DNA from: a virus
Lineage: Monodnaviria; Loebvirae; Hofneiviricota; Faserviricetes; Tubulavirales; Inoviridae
DNA length: 8,021 nucleotides
Reading direction: 5' to 3' (one strand)
Virus record (IMG/VR): IMGVR_UViG_2695420487_000001
Location: 1 to 8,021 of that record
Both the position numbers and the translations under genes were made by a program. Positions 1 through 8,021 of this stretch are shown here, in pieces (positions within the stretch are counted from its first letter, which is position 1; each line of letters opens with the position of its first letter). Below the pieces are notes generated by a model. That model made no database searches. It was not told where the DNA came from and was given only the letters and a program-made list of their open reading frames with translations.

Positions 1-135
1 CTGTCGTTCTCAAAATCGGTGGAGCTGCATGACAAGGTCATCGGGCATTATCTGAACATAAAACACTATCAGTAAGTTGGAGTCACTACCCAATTTTTCC
101 ATTGTGGAACTGATAGGGTTCAGTTTCCTCTTATT

Positions 136-157
136 AAACCGTGGTTTCCCACGGTTT
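136..157. other. Perfect 9-bp stem hairpin (aaaccgtgg / ccacggttt, 4-nt loop) immediately beyond the stop of the minus-strand membrane-protein gene
   Basis: Read directly: 136-144 aaaccgtgg, loop tttc, 149-157 ccacggttt. Flanks are only weakly T-rich (tttgaaatt on +), so function as a terminator is uncertain. Confidence 0.3.
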
Positions 158-161
158 GAAA

Positions 162-584
162 TTACCAGTGATATGAATTTCTTCTGTGCCACCAATAAAG
201 CAGCCCGTATCCGATGATAAGAATTCCGAAAAACATCAACGACATTCCCCAGCCAGTTCCATACCACGAAACCATATCATCGAAAACCAATCCACCCGTT
301 TCACGTACTCCGGCAGCTTCCTTAAGGATTGGTTTGAATACCGGAATCAGAAGGGCAATCGCCAGTGGAGCACCCCAGCGAACAAGACCTGTTTCCATTT
401 TGATCCCGAAAAAGATCCCCGCCCCAACAACAAGCAGCCAGACTATCAGGCTAGGCGCAGTTTCCAGAGCTGTTTGCCATTCAACATCGAAAGTTTTCAT
501 TAGCCAGGCAACAACTGCCAGACAGAAAGCAAATATGCCCACGACAACCAGTTCAACGCCGCTTGTTTCGTTATTTCTACTCAT
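162..584 (-). CDS. Hypothetical small integral membrane protein (about 4 predicted TM helices), 140 aa; phage accessory gene or flanking host gene
   Basis: Intact 140-aa ORF with four long hydrophobic stretches (e.g. VELVVVGIFAFCLAVVAWLM, GWGMSLMFFGILIIGYGLLYWW). AAGGA Shine-Dalgarno-like motif about 8 nt upstream of the ATG on the minus strand. The overlapping opposite-strand ORFs lack such features. No family recognised by eye. Confidence 0.6.
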   Translation of the reverse strand: MSRNNETSGVELVVVGIFAFCLAVVAWLMKTFDVEWQTALETAPSLIVWLLVVGAGIFFGIKMETGLVRWGAPLAIALLIPVFKPILKEAAGVRETGGLVFDDMVSWYGTGWGMSLMFFGILIIGYGLLYWWHRRNSYHW

Positions 585-626
585 CCTTTTGATCCTTTTT
601 CACTGTTCAAAATTCGCGCAATAAAG

Positions 627-655
627 AACGTGCAGTGTTGGTAATACTGCACGTT
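627..655 (-). terminator. Candidate intrinsic terminator between the repressor gene and the membrane-protein gene (perfect 10-bp stem, 9-nt loop, CTTTATT on the minus strand)
   Basis: 627-636 aacgtgcagt and 646-655 actgcacgtt are exact reverse complements. On the minus strand the hairpin is followed by ctttattgcg. It lies 28 nt downstream of the repressor stop (683). Confidence 0.4.
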
Positions 656-682
656 AGTCTCATTCCTGAGACCGCTAGCTTT

Positions 683-1129
683 TTACTCTTCGCCTGACAA
701 TGCTTTTTTCATAAACATTTTTGTACTGTAAGTATATGAACTTAATGCAGAAACTTGCCTTGCAAGTGCCAGAATATCTTGCTTCTCCAGTGTTCTGATG
801 TTCCACACGATGAAATTATGCGCGTTCGTGGTTTCTTCATCAGTATATCCGTCCGCAGAAGTTATCAGCTTTCGCTCAGTAGCTTCTTCTTTAACATCAA
901 GAGCATAGCCATAAGCTAAGGTGTTCAAATCTGCGCCAGTAATTTTAGCTATCTGAATTATATCGCTGAATTTAGGTTCAGTTTTGCCGGACGCTATCCT
1001 GACCAGCGTACTTACGCTAATGCCAGTCTTCTCGGCCAGTTCTTCATAAGTCGAGTGTTCCAGAATTGCCTTTTTTATACGTTCTGCTCTCTGTTTGTCC
1101 GCCATAACTTCATGCTCATTGTTGCCCAT
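683..1129 (-). CDS. Helix-turn-helix (XRE / Cro-C1-like) transcriptional regulator, putative prophage repressor, 148 aa
   Basis: Intact ORF. The N-terminal segment EELAEKTGISVSTLVRIASGK has a typical HTH pattern. GGAG lies 7 nt upstream of the ATG at 1129. The gene is transcribed divergently from the replication gene gII, the arrangement seen for repressors of temperate filamentous phages (e.g. CTXphi rstR). The C-terminal roughly 80 residues are unassigned. Confidence 0.8.
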   Translation of the reverse strand: MGNNEHEVMADKQRAERIKKAILEHSTYEELAEKTGISVSTLVRIASGKTEPKFSDIIQIAKITGADLNTLAYGYALDVKEEATERKLITSADGYTDEETTNAHNFIVWNIRTLEKQDILALARQVSALSSYTYSTKMFMKKALSGEE

Positions 1130-1300
1130 CTACTTCGCTCCATCTTAACAGTGGTTTTTCAATAGTCTGATTACATGCTCAGTTCTGACAATTTAAACAT
1201 TGCAAATGTATTGACTGTCAGATCTGAGCATATTACATTGTGACCATTCAATCTGCTCACAAATGACTATTGACACATATTTTGATGGGTGTGACTACTT
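1130..1300. promoter_or_regulatory. Divergent control region between repressor and gII: candidate sigma70 promoter for gII (-35 TTGACT 1211-1216, 17-bp spacer, -10 TACATT 1234-1239) overlapping a 21-nt-arm imperfect inverted repeat (1170-1190 / 1216-1236)
   Basis: Hexamers read from the sequence. The repeat arms match as reverse complements at 17 of 21 positions. A second TTGACA occurs at 1270-1275 without a convincing -10. No experimental support. Confidence 0.4.
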
Positions 1301-2353
1301 ATGATCGACTGGTTTACCGGAATTCTTCCTTGCACACACCGACCGTTACCGGCCGGTAGTGTCGTCAGCGTTGATGCTGACGGTGCAGTGGAGTGGGAAA
1401 CAGTAAAGCGGTTGACCGTTCGCGGTTCATACGAATCCACAATGAAAGTACGATCTGTTGGATCAGACGGGGAGGGCCGGGCAACTCATCTTTATATTGA
1501 CGGAAATCCGTCAAAATTTCTTCAGGGGCATTCTGTTATTGGCTCCGATGATTTGCAGGGGCTGGTATTAACCGCTTACGCAAGAATATTGGCATTACTT
1601 CATATTCCTCATGATCTACCATCCTATCGTCAGGTAATGGCAGGGCAATTTAAGATCTCACGCATTGATATTAACTACATGTATTCATTATCAACGCTGG
1701 AAAATGTCCGCGCATGGCTATATGCCGCAGAATTCAAGGCTAAAACTCGCCATGGTCGCGCCTGTGGTAAAGGTGGAACTGTTTACTTAGGGAAAAACTC
1801 CCGGCGGTGGAGCCTGAAATTTTATTCAAAATATGATGAGCATATTTCTGGTAAAAAAGGACACCAGATAGCAGAAGAGTTTGTTAAAGCTGGCTTACTT
1901 GACTGGTCTAAAGATAAATTACGAATTGAATTGACGCTAAGAACAACAGAATTAATTGACTTAAACCTTACGCTTGGCAGTAACTGGAATATCGATACTC
2001 CAAACAAATTATTCTCTGAATATGTAGGGAGAATAGAAATGAATCAAAATGCCATTTTGACCGATGAAAAAATAGTTAAACTGCCGAGAAAAATACAATC
2101 AACATATTTACTGTGGAAGCAGGGCGCAAACATGAAAGAAATGCTTCCAAAGCCAACATTTTACAGGCACCGAAAAGAATTATTGTCTTTCGGGATAGAT
2201 ATTAATTTTTATTGTGAATCCCCTGATTCAAATAATGTTGTTCCATTAGTAAGAACACTTGAAGCTAAACCAGCCCAAATCCCTACATGGGTTTATGAGA
2301 AAGGTTTTATTTTTGATTACAACCGTATTTCACATGCCAGTAACTGGCATTAA
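1301..2353 (+). CDS. gII: Replication initiation protein pII (rolling-circle nickase, Phage_CRI-type), 350 aa
   Basis: Starts MID... like fd/M13 pII. Conserved blocks recognised from memory of M13 pII: KFLQGHSVIGSDDL vs KVLQGHNVFGTTDL, KISRIDINY vs TISRIDATF, NNVVPLVR near the C-terminus. It is followed by the gV/gVII/gIX/gVIII block as in Ff/IKe. Confidence 0.9.
   Translation: MIDWFTGILPCTHRPLPAGSVVSVDADGAVEWETVKRLTVRGSYESTMKVRSVGSDGEGRATHLYIDGNPSKFLQGHSVIGSDDLQGLVLTAYARILALLHIPHDLPSYRQVMAGQFKISRIDINYMYSLSTLENVRAWLYAAEFKAKTRHGRACGKGGTVYLGKNSRRWSLKFYSKYDEHISGKKGHQIAEEFVKAGLLDWSKDKLRIELTLRTTELIDLNLTLGSNWNIDTPNKLFSEYVGRIEMNQNAILTDEKIVKLPRKIQSTYLLWKQGANMKEMLPKPTFYRHRKELLSFGIDINFYCESPDSNNVVPLVRTLEAKPAQIPTWVYEKGFIFDYNRISHASNWH
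2039..2353 (+). CDS. gX: pX-like protein from in-frame internal start within gII (C-terminal 104 aa of pII)
   Basis: ATG at 2039 is in frame with gII, and MNQNAILTDE aligns with the M13 pX start (MNIYDDSAV) by position within pII. Inferred by analogy only. Confidence 0.45.
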   Translation: MNQNAILTDEKIVKLPRKIQSTYLLWKQGANMKEMLPKPTFYRHRKELLSFGIDINFYCESPDSNNVVPLVRTLEAKPAQIPTWVYEKGFIFDYNRISHASNWH

Positions 2354-2364
2354 AGGAGCGTGAT

Positions 2365-2682
2365 ATGTCTAATTATGGTCTTTTTGTAAAAGGTAAAATG
2401 CTTGGTGCTCGTCAGCGTAATAAAGTCAATGGTCAGGGCTATTACAATGAAATTGGTATCGGTTTAGAGATCCCTGATGGTTTTGGCGGTACTAAGCAAG
2501 ACCAAATAATTATTCGTGTATCACAGTCCCTTGTGAACGCCGGAGTCATGAATCAAGCCAATAGTTTTACGGGGAAATTAGTTCAAATCCCTGTATATGT
2601 TCGTGTCTGGTCAATGGAGGGTAGAGAAGGTGTGACTTATAATATTTCATCAGATGGTGGGATCACTGAAATAAAAGGTTAA
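2365..2682 (+). CDS. gV: Putative ssDNA-binding protein (gene V position), 105 aa; not obviously similar to fd/IKe pV
   Basis: Intact ORF with a strong AGGAG Shine-Dalgarno 8 nt upstream. It occupies the gene V slot between gII and gVII. Function is assigned from synteny, not from sequence similarity. Confidence 0.55.
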   Translation: MSNYGLFVKGKMLGARQRNKVNGQGYYNEIGIGLEIPDGFGGTKQDQIIIRVSQSLVNAGVMNQANSFTGKLVQIPVYVRVWSMEGREGVTYNISSDGGITEIKG

Positions 2683-2684
2683 TT

Positions 2685-2771
2685 ATGGATGATGTTATTC
2701 AAATATTAATAGCATCCGGCATTGTTATTTCTTTTGGTCTTGGTGCTATTACCGCAGGTGTCATTCGTTAA
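2685..2771 (+). CDS. gVII: Minor coat protein pVII-like, 28 aa
   Basis: Small hydrophobic peptide MDDVIQILIASGIVISFGLGAITAGVIR. It starts 3 nt after the gV stop and its stop overlaps the next start (TAATG), as in Ff phages. Resembles M13 pVII (…IQISVVLCFALGIIAGGQR). Confidence 0.6.
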   Translation: MDDVIQILIASGIVISFGLGAITAGVIR

Positions 2772-2866
2772 TGTATATTGTGTATTTCTTCGGGGCTTAT
2801 ACCTTAGGATTTGCCCTTTTCTATGCGGTCGGTTCGTTTAAAACATTATCTGACCGATTAATGTAA
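2771..2866 (+). CDS. gIX: Minor coat protein pIX-like, 31 aa
   Basis: MYIVYFFGAYTLGFALFYAVGSFKTLSDRLM. AGGTG lies upstream and the start overlaps the gVII stop. Position and size match Ff pIX (…YFTRLM…). Confidence 0.6.
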   Translation: MYIVYFFGAYTLGFALFYAVGSFKTLSDRLM

Positions 2867-2895
2867 TAAAACCTAACTTAAATGGAGTTATTTAT

Positions 2896-3138
2896 ATGAA
2901 AGTCATTTCTGTTATTAAATCTAAAATTGCTGTGGCTTCAACCGCACTTTTTGTTTCTGCAAGTTGTTTTGCTGCTGATGGCGCAACGGGTAGCACTGAC
3001 TATGCAGGTCAGGCAATGGATTCACTGCTGACTCAGGCAAACGATCTTATTGCAAAAGTATGGCCTGCTGTTGTCGCTGTCGTTGGTGCGGGTCTTGCCA
3101 TTCGTTTGTTTAAAAAGTTCTCTTCGAAAGCAGTTTAA
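2896..3138 (+). CDS. gVIII: Major coat protein pVIII precursor (signal peptide plus about 54-aa mature coat), IKe-like
   Basis: GGAG 7 nt upstream. Signal peptide ends ...SASCFA. The mature part ADGATGSTDYAGQAMDSLLTQANDLIAKVWPAVVAVVGAGLAIRLFKKFSSKAV closely resembles the IKe/Ff coat (…IRLFKKFSSKAV), with acidic N-terminus, hydrophobic core and basic C-terminus. Confidence 0.9.
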   Translation: MKVISVIKSKIAVASTALFVSASCFAADGATGSTDYAGQAMDSLLTQANDLIAKVWPAVVAVVGAGLAIRLFKKFSSKAV

Positions 3139-3147
3139 AATTCACTC

Positions 3148-3171
3148 AGGGGCACTCGTTGCCCCTTTATT
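3148..3171 (+). terminator. Rho-independent terminator after gVIII (stem GGGGCA / TGCCCC, then TTTATT)
   Basis: 3149-3154 ggggca pairs with 3160-3165 tgcccc and is followed by tttatt. This is the same position as the strong terminator after gene VIII in Ff phages. Confidence 0.7.
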
Positions 3172-3184
3172 AAAGCGGGTTATT

Positions 3185-4428
3185 ATGAAAAGGAAAATAT
3201 TAATTATTTCCGCTATTCTTATTTCTTCTTTTTCACATGCTGATTCATGGGAAAGCATTACTAAATCTACTTTTCAAAGCTCTGCCTATTCTGAAAGTAA
3301 GCAAATAACCAACCAAGATGGCACTAAACAAACTGTTTATTATATTGATGCAGCTATGCAGGCTTCTGCCTGTCAGGGGGCTAAAGACAGTGCTCAGGGT
3401 GTTTTTACTCAGGTTAAACCAACTTATGAGGGAGTATGGCCTAACTCTGAATTCCGTCTTGTGTTTTCTGACGCTTGTACCTACAGCGACTCTCCGGGCC
3501 AGAAAGATAAATACTGGAATTTAACCGCTTATATTATCGGTGATATTCAGCGTTCTATTCCTGATGAAAAACCCTCCGAGCCTACACCTGAAGAAATTTG
3601 TGAAGCTAAACCTCCTGAAGAAGGTGTATTTAATAATGTCTATCTTATGATGGTGATCGTTATATTTATTATAACGGTTGTGAATATGAGGCCACTGGCG
3701 TCATTGTTTGCCAGGGTGATGGCACTGTTTGTGCGGCGACATGGAAGCCTACCGGAACCGTAGCCGATCCTTCAGATAAGCCTTCTTCTCCTGCTGGCGA
3801 TGGTGGGGATACTGGAGGCGGGGATACGGGGGGTGGTGATACTGGAGGAGGTGATACAGGCGGTGGTAACTCAGGTGGCGGTAACTCAGGTGGTAATGGC
3901 TCAAGTATTACCAAAGGAGATATTCAGTCAGCTATTGAAGGTGCTTCACCTAAAATGGCCAGTGAGATTCATGATAAGTTAACAGAAAAAGACACCTCAT
4001 CTGATGATAAAAAATCGGCTGATGAACAGACTAAAAATAATATAAATCGTCTTGGTGACGCTATAAATAACCTTACTCGCGGAGCCGGACGTTTTGCTGA
4101 TCCTTCTGGCGGTGATTCTCGTTATGGGAAAGGGGATTCCGAATTAGACAGTGCTTCAACATTGGCTGAATCCGAATTAGGAATAGCTAAAGATTCTCAT
4201 GGTGCTTTATGGGAAGCATTCCTGAATAAAGGTGCTATGCTCCCTAGTTTACCTAATGGTAATGGTTGTTCTGAACTTGTTATTTTCCCCGGTGAAATTT
4301 ATCAGATTGATATTGAATGCGATAAATTACTTACTATCAAAGATGCGCTTTCATGGATTTTTTATTGCCTTACCTTCTGGTATGTATTTACGTCTTTAAC
4401 CTCATTACTTCGTAAAGGAGGTGAGTAA
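3185..4428 (+). CDS. gIII: Adsorption / minor coat protein pIII, interrupted by a frameshift (N-terminal part in frame 2 to about 3643, remainder in frame 1 from about 3646); pseudogene or sequencing error
   Basis: Signal peptide [19 protein letters not shown]. The span 3185..4428 is 1244 nt, not a multiple of 3. Frame 1 after the shift gives [37 protein letters not shown] (like the fd N1 motif DRYANYEGCLWNATGVVVCTGDETQCYGTW), a Gly-rich linker (GGDTGGG repeats) and a C-terminal domain ending …[36 protein letters not shown] (like fd …CDKINLFRGVFAFLLYVATFMYVFSTFANILRNKES). Frame 1 has no start codon near the shift, so the two parts are one gene. Confidence 0.8.
3796..3900. repeat. Tandem near-identical short repeats encoding the glycine-rich linker of pIII (GGDTGGG x4, GGNSGG x2)
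   Basis: Direct reading: ggtggggatactggaggc / ggggatacggggggt / ggtgatactggagga / ggtgatacaggcggt / ggtaactcaggtggc / ggtaactcaggtggt. The reverse complement produces the spurious proline-rich ORF 3669..3914. Confidence 0.8.
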
Positions 4429-4769
4429 TGCCTTTATTATTAGGTATTCCTGCACTATTGCGTTTTCTTATTGGGCTTGTTCCTTTATTTATTGGCTATG
4501 TGGCAAGCTTCCTCGCACGCCTTGCGACTAAAACAGGATTGATAGCTGTAGCATTAGTTGCATTAATTACAACAACTGTCACTCTCTTAATGCAATATCT
4601 TGCTGAGGTTATGTACAATGGCCTTCCTGCTGATTTTTCACATTTAATTGCATCTGTCTTACCAGACCATTTTCAGGCCTGTGTTAATGTCATTATGATT
4701 ACTCGAATTAGCGTTTTTGTTTTCGATTTAAAACAAAAATTCCTTGATTATGCAAACAAGGTGATTTGA
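4428..4769 (+). CDS. gVI: Minor coat protein pVI, 113 aa
   Basis: [16 protein letters not shown]… resembles M13 pVI MPVLLGIPLLLRFLGF…, and …VFVFDLKQKF resembles …IFIFDVKQKI. Strong AAGGAGGTGA Shine-Dalgarno. The start overlaps the gIII stop and the stop overlaps the gI start. Confidence 0.9.
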   Translation: MPLLLGIPALLRFLIGLVPLFIGYVASFLARLATKTGLIAVALVALITTTVTLLMQYLAEVMYNGLPADFSHLIASVLPDHFQACVNVIMITRISVFVFDLKQKFLDYANKVI

Positions 4770-5864
4770 ATGACGGTTCATGTCGTAACAGGGAAATTAG
4801 GTTCAGGTAAGACACTGGTTAGTGTTGCCAGAATACAGGAAAGACTAGCTAAAGGCTGTCCTGTAGCCACTAATCTAGATATTAAACTACATAATATGCC
4901 CATGGTTGGTCGTTATGCGAAAAAAACACGCGTGATTCGTGTCCCTGACAAACCTTCATTAAATGATCTGCTGGCTATTGGTGTAGGCAATACTTCCTAT
5001 GATGAATCACGTAATGGTCTACTGGTTCTTGATGAATGTGGGACTTGGTTTAATTCCCGTTCGTGGGGGGATAAAGACAGACAGCCAGTTATTGACTGGT
5101 TTTTGCATGCCCGTAAATTAGGCTGGGATATTATTTTTCTGATTCAGGATATTTCGATTATGGACAAGCAAGCACGGCTGGCGCTTGCGGAGCATGTTGT
5201 TTATTGTCGTCGTTCAGATAAGTTAAACATCCCATTTATTGGTTCTTTCATGAATATAATTTCAGGTGCTCGTTTTTCTTTACCAAAGGTTCACTTTGGT
5301 ATTGTTAAATATGGTGACAACGTTAATTCAATAACTGTTGATAAATGGATGTATACCGGAAAGTCATTATATTCCGCCTACAATACAAAACAGGCTTTTA
5401 CTGATAATTATCCGCATGGTGCTTATTCGCTTTTGCCGCCATTTATTACACATGGTCAGTTTTCCGTTAACAAAGGGTTTAATTATTATATGCGCCTCAC
5501 GAAAATTTACTTTCGAAAATCAAACCGATTAATATTAATGCTTTCATTTCTGGCATTGGGGCTTGGACTTGGCTTCTGGCTACAATCTGGTAAGAATGCT
5601 GATGAGATTTCGGCTATTAAATCTGCTCATGCTGAACAGGTGAGGGCAGTAACTCCTGACAGTACCAGCGATTTACCGAGACTATCAATTAATTCCTTCT
5701 CTCAACTTGGTTTTGATGTTTCCGTTACGTTTGTTGATGCTAAGGGTATGAAGTACCAGTATTTTGATTTAATTAAAGATGGTTATTCTGTTGATATTAA
5801 AGATGCCTGCCGAATTGTTATCAGAAAAGGCCGTTATTTACAAAACATCACCTGCCAGGAGTAA
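4770..5864 (+). CDS. gI: Assembly protein pI (Zot-like P-loop ATPase), 364 aa
   Basis: Walker A motif GKLGSGKT at the N-terminus. Long stretches nearly identical to remembered M13 pI (VTGKLGSGKTLVSV, LLVLDECGTWFNSRSW, IDWFLHARKLGWDIIFL, DKQARLALAEHVVYCRR). C-terminal TM segment LILMLSFLALGLGLGFWL. Confidence 0.95.
   Translation: MTVHVVTGKLGSGKTLVSVARIQERLAKGCPVATNLDIKLHNMPMVGRYAKKTRVIRVPDKPSLNDLLAIGVGNTSYDESRNGLLVLDECGTWFNSRSWGDKDRQPVIDWFLHARKLGWDIIFLIQDISIMDKQARLALAEHVVYCRRSDKLNIPFIGSFMNIISGARFSLPKVHFGIVKYGDNVNSITVDKWMYTGKSLYSAYNTKQAFTDNYPHGAYSLLPPFITHGQFSVNKGFNYYMRLTKIYFRKSNRLILMLSFLALGLGLGFWLQSGKNADEISAIKSAHAEQVRAVTPDSTSDLPRLSINSFSQLGFDVSVTFVDAKGMKYQYFDLIKDGYSVDIKDACRIVIRKGRYLQNITCQE
5490..5864 (+). 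CDS. gXI: pXI-like protein from in-frame internal start within gI (codon 241)
   Basis: MRLTKIYFRKS aligns with the M13 pXI start MKLTKIYLKKFS. It is in frame with gI. No obvious Shine-Dalgarno, so expression is inferred only by analogy. Confidence 0.45.
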   Translation: MRLTKIYFRKSNRLILMLSFLALGLGLGFWLQSGKNADEISAIKSAHAEQVRAVTPDSTSDLPRLSINSFSQLGFDVSVTFVDAKGMKYQYFDLIKDGYSVDIKDACRIVIRKGRYLQNITCQE

Positions 5865-5871
5865 TATTATT

Positions 5872-7137
5872 ATGCGTTTATTTTTCATTGCTATCTTATT
5901 CACTTATTCTTTTTGCGTTTCTGCTGAAACTGTTAACCTGAATAATTCATCCGTTCGCTCATTTGTCCAGTGGTATTCATCAAAAACTGGCAAGCCCGTT
6001 ATTGTTAATCCTGATGTTAAAGGAACCGTAACGGTATTTAATGCTGATGTTAATCCCACAAATATTGATAGTTTCTTCAAATCTGTACTGAATGCTAACG
6101 GATTTGTCATGCTTTCGGGTAATCCTGCAGTAGTCTCTTTGCCGTCAAAATTACCATCACAGATGGCGTCAGACCTTGATGATGCTGATATTCGGTCTTA
6201 TGACTCTTTCCCGTCTGAGCCATCTTATCAGCCAGCGCCAGTGGAGTTTACTGTCAGAAATTTTAAGCTGACAAAAGTTCGATCGTCTGATGTTCAGCAA
6301 CTGGTTAAAATTTATCTGGATTCTAATGGCGGGGGTAATGTTGTGGATTATCCTGGCAATAACTCCCTGATTGTTTCCGCACCTGATGAGCTGCTTCCCG
6401 TCCTTTCCGATTTCATCAATTCAGTGGATGTTGCCCGCGATCAGGTTTTGATTCAGTCGCTGATGTTTGAAACCAGTCTGTCGGATGGTGTTGATTTGTC
6501 GTTTGCAGCCGGTTCTGCATCCGGGCATAAAGTAGCAGGGGGCTTTAATACTTCAGCATTGGGTAGCGCATTGTCGACTGCCGGCGGCTCTTTTGGCATT
6601 TTTGATGGTAATGTTCTGGCCGTATCCCTGCGTGCGGTGCAGAGTAACTCCCGGTCTAAGGTGATTTCAACGCCCCGGATTCTTACCCAGTCTGGTCAGA
6701 CAGGCTATATTTCTGTTGGTAAAAATGTACCCTTTATCACGGGTAAAGTTACGGGTGAATCTGCCGGGGTAAATAATCCGTTTCAGACCATTGAACGTCA
6801 TGATGTTGGCGTATCTCTGAAGGTGACGCCTGTTGTTATGGGGAACGGCCAGCTTGTACTTACTATTGATACCCGCGCTGATTCCATCAGCAACGATGAC
6901 CAGGCATCTGATATTATTACGAACCAGCGTCAGATACAGACAACAGTTCAGATTAAGGATGGCCAGACGCTCTTACTTGGTGGGCTGATTGATTCATCAT
7001 CCAGCAATGCTGACCGTTCTGTACCGTTTATCAGTAAAATTCCGGTGATTGGCTGGCTTTTCAGGAGTAAAGCTGACAGTAATGAGCAACGCATTATGTA
7101 TGTTCTGCTGACCGCTCATATTATTCGCGCGCTTTGA
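5872..7137 (+). CDS. gIV: Outer-membrane secretin pIV (phage assembly/export channel), 421 aa
   Basis: Start chosen at MRLFFIAILFTYSFCVSA (signal peptide) with AGGAG about 10 nt upstream; the track ORF start at 5779 lies inside gI. Secretin blocks closely match remembered M13 pIV: VIVNPDVKGTVTVF, SGQTGYISVGKNVPFITGKVTGESAGVNNPFQTIERHDVGVSLKV, DGQTLLLGGL, VPFISKIPVIGWLF. Confidence 0.95.
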   Translation: MRLFFIAILFTYSFCVSAETVNLNNSSVRSFVQWYSSKTGKPVIVNPDVKGTVTVFNADVNPTNIDSFFKSVLNANGFVMLSGNPAVVSLPSKLPSQMASDLDDADIRSYDSFPSEPSYQPAPVEFTVRNFKLTKVRSSDVQQLVKIYLDSNGGGNVVDYPGNNSLIVSAPDELLPVLSDFINSVDVARDQVLIQSLMFETSLSDGVDLSFAAGSASGHKVAGGFNTSALGSALSTAGGSFGIFDGNVLAVSLRAVQSNSRSKVISTPRILTQSGQTGYISVGKNVPFITGKVTGESAGVNNPFQTIERHDVGVSLKVTPVVMGNGQLVLTIDTRADSISNDDQASDIITNQRQIQTTVQIKDGQTLLLGGLIDSSSSNADRSVPFISKIPVIGWLFRSKADSNEQRIMYVLLTAHIIRAL

Positions 7138-7287
7138 TGGGGCCGTGGCGGGTGCGTTAAGCCCCGGTATGGCCACATCAAGAGCCGGATTTTACGTTTC
7201 ACCACGGAGCCTCTATATGGCCTTAAAACTGACAGGATATGAACAGAAAGACATCTTCTAGGTAATTCAATTACTTAGAGGTTTTTT

Positions 7288-7536
7288 ATGTCTGTAAAAA
7301 GCAGGGTGCGCGATCGACTCCCCAGTGGTCGCATGAAGTCTTACCGTCGTGTTAGTTCACATTTTACCAGTTGTTCCAGGTGGTTTGATAAATCACCGTC
7401 CTGGTATCGCAATATGATGATGACCCGGCCAGAGCGCCGTGAAGTCAGAAAGCTTCTTAATCAGGTCTTGCGTGGTCGTGATGCTGACGGTATCGCATTT
7501 CCTGTCAGTAACAAGCCGTTTGCATGGTGGTGGTGA
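7288..7536 (+). CDS. Hypothetical small basic Arg/Trp-rich protein, 82 aa (accessory ORF between gIV and the dif-like site)
   Basis: Intact ORF with GAGG about 7 nt upstream of the ATG. High Arg/Ser/Trp content and the ending …FAWWW; no family recognised. It lies in a segment that looks GC-richer than the phage body. Coding status not verified. Confidence 0.4.
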   Translation: MSVKSRVRDRLPSGRMKSYRRVSSHFTSCSRWFDKSPSWYRNMMMTRPERREVRKLLNQVLRGRDADGIAFPVSNKPFAWWW

Positions 7537-7916
7537 ACTTTTTAGCCGCTAAAATTTAATGCTTACGAAGTTATCGTAAACTCCGGTCAGTGACAAAACT
7601 CGTTTTGTTGCTGTCCGGGGTTGGCCAAGCCGTACAGTTTTCATTTTGAGCGTTATAGCTGATTCGGCGCGGCAGCGTTCATCTTATCTGACATTGTGGC
7701 TGTATTTCTGGGGAAGGTTTCATGTATCAGGTACAGATTTACCAACTGCAACTGGATGAACAGGCCTGATTGGTGAGGTCAGGCCGTTCACTTACTGCTG
7801 ACAGACATTTGATTCTGATTCGTCTGGAGAAACGGATGATTTTGAATCACTGTCGATAGTTGCCAGTTGACGCCAAGTGTCAACGATTCCCGCCAGATTC
7901 TGCCATCCTTACCATT

Positions 7917-8010
7917 GGTGCGCATAATGTACGACTCGTTATGTTGAAAAGGCCGCTGCGAAAATCGAATCCCGCAGCGGCCTCTTTAGCATAACGTCAT
8001 TGTGCGAACC
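7917..8010. other. dif-like XerC/XerD recombination site pair in inverted orientation forming a roughly 94-nt imperfect palindrome (candidate attP / integration junction of an IMEX-type filamentous phage)
   Basis: 7917-7927 GGTGCGCATAA equals the E. coli dif XerC arm 11/11. It is followed by tgtacgactcg and by TTATGTTGAAA (7939-7949; dif XerD arm TTATGTTAAAT, 9/11). An inverted copy lies at 7984-8010: ctttagcataa (9/11 to the reverse-complemented XerD arm), then ttgtgcgaacc (9/11 to the reverse-complemented XerC arm). Between them is a perfect 10-bp GC stem. Confidence 0.65.
7951..7982. other. Central GC-rich stem-loop of the palindrome (ggccgctgcg / cgcagcggcc, 12-nt loop); could also act as a bidirectional terminator
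   Basis: 7951-7960 and 7973-7982 are exact reverse complements. The stem is followed by tcttt on the + strand and ttttcaac on the minus strand. Confidence 0.5.
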
Positions 8011-8021
8011 AAAAATCTCAA

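Follow-up and report, generated by a model that had tools for sequence, protein, structure and literature searches.

Filamentous prophages of the CUS-1 type have been linked to highly virulent Escherichia coli K1 clones, and the phage YpfPhi to pandemic Yersinia pestis; both phages integrate at dif (PMC4266046). On its attL side, CUS-1 carries open reading frames (ORFs) designated orf1 and orf1a, which were noted in 2002 and for which the summary in PMC4266046 of the work of Gonzalez et al. 2002 gives no database homologs and no known function. Their function was still unknown in 2014, and the end-of-genome ORFs of CUS-1 and YpfPhi are a named open question in the literature (PMC4266046). YpfPhi is 99% identical to CUS-1 over 7.1 kb and has YPO2271 and YPO2272 in the same attL-side slot after the regulator (PMC4266046). 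Here, we analyze a stretch of DNA of 8,021 nucleotides from a filamentous inovirus (IMG/VR record IMGVR_UViG_2695420487_000001; the whole stretch is referred to as the window) and identify the gene at 162..584 on its minus strand, which encodes a 140-aa membrane protein next to the presumed phage repressor, as a phage-borne accessory gene in a cargo slot. We tentatively suggest that its product protects lysogens by superinfection exclusion.

By position, the window ORF corresponds to CUS-1 orf1 or orf1a. In UTI89 (O18:K1:H7), an identical protein (WP_000089310; UTI89 ABE07213) is encoded between hipA/attL and the regulator gene, and the same protein is found in strain SCPM-O-B-12142. The left arm of the window phage (regulator, membrane protein, Rep and single-stranded DNA [ssDNA]-binding protein) is that of CUS-1 of UTI89 at 95-100% protein identity, whereas its structural module (coat, pIII, pVI, Zot and secretin) is different, being unrelated to, or just 25% identical with, the UTI89 counterparts. 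The initial annotation was right to call the gene uncharacterized as far as its function goes, but the ORF had been seen before. Literature on a UTI89 expression-library screen and on whole-proteome annotation makes no mention of the gene or of a filamentous prophage. According to the review, YPO2271 and YPO2272 of YpfPhi are unrelated in sequence to the ORFs of CUS-1 in this slot (PMC4266046), and no Y. pestis protein is among the source-named members of its family. What is new here is the viral origin, seen from tandem and episomal copies; the cargo-slot architecture with a conserved two-hairpin boundary; and a wider four-helix family on diverse mobile elements, for which a confident structural model predicts a fold without known relatives.

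The membrane gene and the helix-turn-helix (HTH) regulator gene are the leftward genes of the window. Their arm comprises the following features.

162..584, minus strand: coding sequence for the inner-membrane protein of 140 aa and four helices, the cargo gene closest to the regulator (ORF call; ATG start, stop included)
585..598, minus strand: ribosome-binding region, with AAGGA at 593-597 (8 nt ahead of the start codon) and, as a second motif, AAAGG adjoining the start codon
627..655, minus strand: hairpin 2, a perfect 10-bp stem with a 9-nt loop (RNA fold)
656..673, minus strand: hairpin 1, immediately next to hairpin 2, with a stem of 6-7 bp closed by the loop GGAA (RNA fold)
683..1129, minus strand: HTH (XRE/CI-type) regulator, presumed phage repressor (Pfam HTH_3 1.4e-9 and Phage_CI_repr 1.9e-4; PHROG 3557, transcriptional regulator)
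1130..1300, no strand: divergent control region between the regulator and Rep genes, with a rightward sigma-70-like promoter at 1211-1239 (promoter scan)

The ORF at 162..584 is a genuine, selectively constrained gene of CUS-1-like, dif-integrating inoviruses found in Enterobacterales. We judge it real because pairwise ratios of nonsynonymous to synonymous substitution (dN/dS) among nine loci are 0.06-0.13, at dS up to 1.0, indicating strong purifying selection, and because the protein aligns from end to end with PHROG 4174, a family of unknown function (E 1.1e-84; residues 1-140 against all 140 profile positions). The Shine-Dalgarno region is kept in all close loci. Kyte-Doolittle hydropathy places four hydrophobic segments at ~12-29, 44-61, 70-87 and 112-132, and AlphaFold2, using a 47-sequence alignment, models four long helices at 8-32, 36-63, 67-91 (with a kink at P81/P85) and 111-137 (predicted local distance difference test, pLDDT, 83.6; predicted template modeling score, pTM, 0.70). 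The ORF call, hydropathy, structural model and dN/dS thus agree on a 140-aa protein with four transmembrane helices, as had been proposed from the sequence. The protein is probably oriented N-in/C-in with both termini in the cytoplasm, a topology that we favor because of charge counts across the family, in which the N-terminus, loop 2 and the C-terminus have a higher density of Lys plus Arg (0.17 per residue) than loops 1 and 3 (0.07). Three motifs are best conserved, all predicted to lie on the periplasmic face: FDV follows helix 1, P-x-L-x-x-A-G-x-R follows helix 3 and WYGTGWG precedes helix 4. P73, P85, Y108 and G125 are invariant or nearly so, and the family alignment holds no conserved residue of a catalytic type.

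Several lines of evidence show that the membrane gene is phage-borne and exclude a host origin. First, the tandem prophage of SCPM-O-B-12142 (locus L002 in our set of loci), which occupies the dif region beside hipBA, has repeated copies of orf369, the membrane gene, the HTH gene, and Rep through secretin; the membrane gene is also present inside a tandem prophage on a Klebsiella pneumoniae plasmid. Second, it is carried by a 9,565-bp circular E. coli replicon otherwise made only of phage genes, evidently the replicative form, in a strain that also has chromosomal copies of the gene. Third, 22 inovirus contigs of IMG/VR carry it, as do one gut-metagenome inovirus and an Izhakiella contig of 8,271 bp with high coverage. 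Fourth, its occurrence in E. coli is sparse (142 of 5,426 complete genomes, with a median of two places per genome), and it lies beside a phage regulator in 10/10 annotated or tblastn-profiled enterobacterial loci. The suggestion that the ORF could equally be the first flanking host gene is therefore refuted, and the comparison of locus structures that was to decide the matter shows phage origin at the occupied loci. We regard the chance that it is a flanking host gene, or a spurious ORF, as vanishingly small: the nearest case is a lone homolog in Mixta, which lies near the terminus region with no phage genes nearby, and nothing else speaks in its favor, whereas the repeats inside tandem phage units, the copy on the 9.5-kb circular episome, the restriction to 142 genomes and the constant regulator neighbor all speak against a host gene, as a dN/dS of ~0.1 does against a spurious ORF. 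As a separate observation, the contig of locus L003 (JARKOR010000214.1) was deposited as 'Candidatus Nanosynbacter'; its prophage adjoins a hipA with 98% identity to that of E. coli, and the contig is almost certainly a mis-binned Enterobacteriaceae contig.

The surroundings of the membrane gene are mosaic. In every inovirus locus examined, the gene lies directly after a regulator gene and is co-oriented with it, as it is with 683..1129 in the window. The preceding regulators are HTH148, HTH variants (36-40% identity), ribbon-helix-helix (RHH)-like proteins of 60 aa and of 89 aa, and a 70-aa protein (L040). Rep is either of the 350-aa pII type or of an unrelated 396-aa type; either structural module, with two unrelated types of pIII, accompanies the membrane gene; and the distal cargo consists of orf369, of a 91-aa zinc-ribbon protein (zn91) with orf159, of a DpnII/MboI-like nuclease with a DUF6953 protein, or of nothing. 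Synteny with the regulator persists even where the homologs are 38-39% identical (L040 and L046), and in L040 the gap between the two genes is only 38 nt. By contrast, a sister lineage of E. coli phages with a 76%-identical HTH regulator, the same two hairpins and the same structural genes lacks the membrane gene; there, both hairpins and a U-rich tail are followed by other cargo, either a convergent DUF3892 gene with two small soluble ORFs or a Fic/Doc-like gene with a secreted protein whose C-terminal part is homologous to TolA domain III. The module of repressor and membrane protein that the initial annotation pointed to is thus phage-borne, adjacent and co-oriented, but it is not a fixed pair: at least four different regulators occupy the first position, and phages with a closely similar repressor do without the second gene. 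We conclude that the DNA past hairpin 2 is a cargo slot read in the leftward (lysogeny) direction and that the membrane gene is its commonest first occupant.

Two points about the gene follow from these comparisons. YpfPhi forms infectious virions, and strains TOP10 and ECOR31 can be infected by it; yet it has unrelated ORFs at the position of the membrane gene (PMC4266046). Because the sister lineage and YpfPhi both do without it, the membrane gene is accessory and dispensable for this kind of virus. The slot also includes genes of a protective or conflict type, namely the restriction-nuclease-like gene and, in the sister lineage, the Fic/Doc-like gene and the TolA-III homolog. A role in the life cycle of the phage itself, whether in assembly and extrusion, in relief of membrane stress caused by pI and secretin, as an anchor for replication or integration, or as a partner of the regulator in its switch, would fit the retention of the gene through every module exchange in the main lineage under strong purifying selection, and its tight linkage to the regulator, down to the 38 nt of L040. 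We nevertheless consider such a role improbable: sister phages with the same structural genes and infectious YpfPhi lack the gene, the rightward morphogenesis operon does not include it, elements other than phages carry homologs, and four unrelated types of regulator as neighbors argue against a specific protein partner.

Some of the other cargo deserves a description of its own. orf369 (L002 8855-9964, outside the window) belongs to PHROG 17621, is a cargo ORF of CUS-1 and has no match in Pfam, NCBIfam or PADLOC; a version that is 27-49% identical and apparently split is present on the 9.5-kb episome (L015 8728-9503). The nuclease (L017 10491-11562, and L027-L029) is a 264-aa protein of the DpnII/MboI type (Pfam E 7e-59; PADLOC Aga_Helical-REase E 1e-34), and no methyltransferase gene is visible with the nuclease and DUF6953 pair, the carrier being a 9-10 kb ssDNA phage. 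The Fic/Doc-like gene and the gene for the secreted 363-aa TolA-III protein are found at L050 4608-6697, L054 9175-10266 and L055 9281-10372. Of a query covering this stretch, a part has matches in 1,134 of 5,426 complete E. coli genomes; all matches listed fall on the TolA-like gene, which lies in the hipA/dif region in 2/2 genomes inspected and, in one of them, directly after a regulator remnant, as if the region were a fossil left arm of a filamentous prophage.

The spacer between the membrane gene and the regulator gene is 98 bp long (585-682). It had been described as holding a single perfect hairpin; the perfect 10-bp stem is present, but it belongs to one of two adjacent hairpins. The sequence directly 3' of hairpin 2 in the window spacer is CTTTATTG, and the tail after hairpin 2 (627..655, minus strand) is CUUUAUUG. 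The spacer RNA folds with -27.4 kcal/mol (z = -3.5), and 0/200 shuffled sequences fold as well. In all lineages, the regulator gene ends with two abutting hairpins, located at window 627-673, L003 9913-9958, L006 6868-6912, L048 4456-4500 and L050 4456-4500. Hairpin 1 exists in three versions that are unrelated in sequence (GTCTCA-GGAA-TGAGAC, GTACCA-CGAA-TGGTAC and GTATGG-GAAT-CCATAC), all of which keep, by compensatory changes, a 6-bp stem and a 4-nt loop containing GAA. Hairpin 2 is common to two of the three versions, and the third has an unrelated hairpin with an 8-bp stem instead; the stem and loop geometry of the double hairpin is preserved in all versions. The exchange boundary between the HTH148 and RHH60 versions lies between hairpin 1 and hairpin 2. 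In the lineage without the membrane gene, the same hairpin 2 ends the regulator transcript ahead of the convergent gene, with the tail UUGAUUUUU. On the basis of these cross-lineage comparisons, we read hairpin 2 as probably a leaky, moderate intrinsic terminator of the regulator transcript and the DNA beyond it as the cargo slot. The double hairpin would then look like a terminator plus a second structured element that coincides with the recombination boundary of the slot; it may also have a role on ssDNA, as a minus-strand origin or in packaging.

The position of hairpin 2 bears on the expression of the membrane gene. The promoter scan found no sigma-70-like promoter between hairpin 2 and the ATG, and we have dropped the idea that the gene has its own promoter of this type. 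Because no promoter-like site follows hairpin 2, and because hairpin 2 resembles a moderate terminator, the most likely course is that read-through from the regulator promoter gives weak expression of the membrane gene in lysogens; lambda rexB, which is made together with cI, offers an analogy for the predicted read-through.

The family of the membrane protein is small. An HMMER scan of 1.84 billion representative proteins returned 41 clusters only (at 50% identity). The close clusters are from Enterobacterales, and the distant ones are 22-39% identical, with the same length and motif pattern; all members in the databases are named 'hypothetical protein'. A tblastn search of 50,697 deposited phage genomes, among them the Ff relative I2-2, which was located through the Rep protein, gave no match to the window protein, which confirms and extends the earlier statement that Ff and IKe genomes have no counterpart. 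Scans of the window protein and 27 family members against Pfam, NCBIfam and PADLOC returned nothing specific (best, VKOR, E 0.13), and in PADLOC neither the window protein nor either of two distant homologs had a match (E<=1 or E<=0.01). Searched with a profile, PDB sequences gave chance helix matches only (E >= 0.06), and Foldseek against viral structures returned nothing below E 0.5 and no specific fold neighbor. A locus search with family subgroup A3 found no viral contig. The topology, structure and remote-homology analyses that had been proposed yield four helices, with N-in/C-in favored, and a match to PHROG 4174 only.

For four classes of membrane protein, the comparison with the window protein was negative; a transporter of the SMR type, a holin and the toxin of a toxin-antitoxin pair were dropped as candidates. 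For the immunity proteins to pore-forming toxins (colicin or type VI secretion system [T6SS]), there is no Pfam or NCBIfam match and no toxin gene in the inovirus loci. For a holin or small membrane toxin, the best holin match has E 0.33 and occurs in 2/27 family members, and there is no endolysin and no antitoxin-style overlap. For a small multidrug transporter (SMR; Multi_Drug_Res), a class with four helices, ~110 aa and a conserved membrane-embedded Glu in helix 1, there is no Pfam match and E11 is not conserved in the family. The inovirus morphogenesis proteins (pI/pXI, pVI, pVII, pIX and pIII) are encoded elsewhere in the window; a morphogenesis role is also disfavored by the location of the gene in the leftward arm and its lack in virion-producing relatives.

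The distant homologs are single genes on other mobile DNA. One adjoins a relaxase gene on a conjugative element; one ends a Tn7-like cargo, after an E1-like gene; one overlaps the end of a zinc-finger transposase-like ORF, the passenger position of an insertion sequence (IS); one shares 4 nt with the start of a VgrG-like gene; and IncHI2 plasmids have a 35%-identical homolog 0.6 kb upstream of an operon of the cyclic oligonucleotide-based antiphage signaling system (CBASS), type II. On IncHI2 plasmid p23141-mcr (L016 7117-13307), this homolog closes a run of three genes (108 aa, 161-170 aa and 138 aa) just upstream of the CD-NTase / E1-E2 / JAB / SAVED operon. These contexts fit a self-contained benefit to the carrier.

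Such a benefit could be of another kind than phage exclusion. The protein could be a lysogenic-conversion factor that confers immunity to membrane-targeting toxins (pore-forming colicins, or effectors of T6SS or contact-dependent growth inhibition) or has a function in stress, fitness or virulence. Immunity to pore-forming toxins is usually conferred by small polytopic inner-membrane proteins, family members are present on many kinds of mobile element, the overlap with the VgrG-like gene provides a lead, though only a lead, and the Mixta homolog has an Hcp gene at a distance of 2.3 kb. Moreover, CUS-1 and YpfPhi modestly raise fitness in animals; however, the CUS-1 virulence mutation was mapped to puvA, which encodes a virion protein, and not to the membrane ORF (PMC4266046). 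With no accompanying toxin gene in any of >30 inovirus loci and no Pfam match to colicin or T6SS immunity families, we consider a host benefit of this kind possible but doubtful. Should the protein prove not to be an exclusion factor, it would still be a compact candidate for the fitness effect of CUS-1-type prophages.

The reading that we favor, while holding it tentatively and at short of an even chance, is that the gene encodes a protective, exclusion-type inner-membrane factor made in lysogens. It is based on position, topology and analogy. In this model, the protein would protect the lysogen by superinfection exclusion at the inner-membrane entry step of filamentous phages, without acting on a specific primary receptor; the blocked step would be one common to phages with different adsorption proteins, for instance the TolQRA-dependent insertion of pIII into the inner membrane. 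Three considerations lead us to it. First, the gene is kept with two unrelated types of pIII, that is, independently of the adsorption protein, and we favor the inner-membrane step because it would be common to phages with different pIII, by way of helix-helix contacts with TolQ and TolR. Second, the slot of the sister lineage holds the gene for a secreted TolA-III homolog. pIII uses TolA domain III as its co-receptor, a soluble periplasmic copy of it blocks Ff infection, and from Ff biology the secreted homolog would be expected to titrate pIII; it could thus be a pIII decoy that acts in exclusion. Third, membrane proteins encoded next to prophage repressors are a known class of exclusion factor, with lambda RexB, P22 SieA and Pf4 PfsE as examples. 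In fd, pIII contacts the transmembrane helices of TolQ and TolR during import (PMC10424213), and resident YpfPhi protects only partially against superinfection (PMC4266046).

Several observations weigh against exclusion. The family, PDB, hhalign and fold searches linked the protein to none of the known exclusion proteins, by either sequence or fold, and the receptor and entry route of CUS-1-like phages are not established in the literature (PMC4266046). In complete E. coli genomes, lysogens commonly carry at least two tandem copies, with up to 16 places per genome, and exclusion of the same phage, if present, is therefore not absolute; tandem arrays can, however, arise without reinfection too. 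The terminator-like hairpin 2 could leave the membrane gene barely expressed in lysogens, and the mobile-element contexts of the distant homologs are few and heterogeneous.

A broader form of the exclusion reading, which we think unlikely, is that the window protein is the founder of a new family of single-gene inner-membrane exclusion factors, borne by mobile elements, that block the TolQRA-dependent import of filamentous phages and perhaps of group A colicins. A block of this import would explain the retention of the gene with two unrelated types of pIII, the secreted TolA-III homolog of the sister lineage in the same slot, and the distant relatives on plasmids, transposons and conjugative elements.

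The remainder of the window places the gene in its prophage. Positions 91-8021 are one unit of a CUS-1-like filamentous inovirus prophage of E. coli and are 99.96% identical to the tandem-prophage unit of SCPM-O-B-12142 (2 mismatches and one 1-bp deletion). The features beyond the leftward arm are as follows.

1..90, no strand: IS1 end, with the inverted repeat ending at base 90 (IS1 matches; 100% identical to an IS1 copy in L002)
1301-2353, plus strand: Rep pII/X (Pfam Phage_CRI and G2P_X_C; RefSeq annotation of L002)
2365-2682, plus strand: ssDNA-binding protein (RefSeq annotation of L002)
2896-3138, plus strand: major coat protein (RefSeq annotation of L002)
3184-4428, plus strand: pIII, frameshifted in the window (RefSeq annotation of L002)
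4428-4769, plus strand: pVI-like protein (RefSeq annotation of L002)
4770-5864, plus strand: Zot/pI (RefSeq annotation of L002)
5872-7137, plus strand: secretin (RefSeq annotation of L002)
7288-7536, plus strand: 82-aa ORF, in the rightward inovirus gene block 1301..7536
7917..8012, no strand: attP-like region at the right end of the phage unit, with two inverted dif-like XerC/D sites around a GC-rich hairpin

The dif-like sites lie at 7917-7946 (plus) and 7989-8012 (minus), with the GC-rich hairpin between them (7949-7987, 13-bp stem); one of them has an over-long central region, GGTGCGCATAA-TGTACGACTCG-TTATGTTGAAA. The region 7917-8012 is expected to be an XerCD attP structure, a folded substrate in the style of CTXphi, and the same 108 bp recur as attL in the reference genome of L002. 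IS1 has inserted 71 bp past the stop codon of the membrane gene and before the start of the 369-aa cargo ORF of intact copies; window position 91 equals L002 10001, 37 bp ahead of the orf369 start. The 369-aa cargo ORF is therefore cut off or deleted in the window copy. At window 3644, one T is deleted relative to the SCPM-O-B-12142 prophage, which shifts the frame of pIII after about residue 153. Because this deletion disrupts the adsorption protein, the window copy is probably non-infectious. Relatives ~60% identical to the HTH regulator of the window abound on E. coli and Salmonella contigs of ~41-42 kb, and a group of larger temperate elements probably has the same type of repressor.

Among known proteins, lambda RexB is encoded downstream of the repressor, is made in lysogens and has a protective, exclusion role. 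Like the window protein, RexB (144 aa) is a four-helix inner-membrane protein of ~140 aa whose gene is co-oriented with, and downstream of, a prophage repressor gene; unlike rexB, the window gene has a terminator-like hairpin between it and the regulator gene. When RexB was compared with a profile of 27 family members by hhalign, the probability was 0.09% (E 0.58), that is, there is no detectable homology, and there is no RexA-like partner between the regulator and membrane genes, the downstream cargo being variable or absent. The likeness in size, topology and position does raise the prospect that the window protein is a membrane-damaging effector: a RexB-like abortive-infection channel, a holin-like protein, or a toxin of post-segregational killing with the upstream DNA-binding protein as its antidote. 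HTH and RHH proteins are typical antitoxins, and some distant homologs lie beside CBASS or an E1-like gene; episomal forms of CUS-1-like phages are, in addition, unstable (PMC4266046). Yet the hhalign result, the lack of RexA or of any other constant partner, a spacer unlike those of toxin-antitoxin operons (98 bp, with a terminator-like hairpin), a size much above that of type I membrane toxins, the lack of a holin family match and the maintenance of intact copies in multi-copy arrays make an effector quite improbable.

PfsE of phage Pf4 has ~30 residues and a single helix and is placed among the core genes. It (PA0721) is an inovirus-encoded inner-membrane protein that protects the lysogen by superinfection exclusion, and its function depends on a cluster of aromatic residues and glycine, YAWGW, near the periplasmic side (PMC8764522). 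The WYGTGWG motif at the periplasmic start of helix 4 of the window protein resembles this cluster, a resemblance that is short and may be due to chance. PfsE targets the type IV pilus protein PilC and suppresses type IV pili, whereas the window protein, with 140 aa and four helices, is regulator-adjacent cargo; with this size and topology, a very small single-helix protein of the PfsE type is ruled out.

HK97 gp15 and T4 Imm are small inner-membrane proteins that block genome entry. P22 SieA is likewise a small inner-membrane protein, made from the prophage, with this effect (PMC10883804). No PHROG or Pfam match connects these three proteins to the window protein. Moreover, the exclusion proteins of tailed phages face tail injection, whereas here the incoming element would be a filamentous ssDNA phage that enters through Tol proteins. 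The membrane gene is the most persistent cargo gene of a recombination-prone slot and a member of an unclassified four-helix family. If it does encode an exclusion factor, its product would join a single known protein of this kind from filamentous phages and could offer a handle on their poorly understood inner-membrane entry step.

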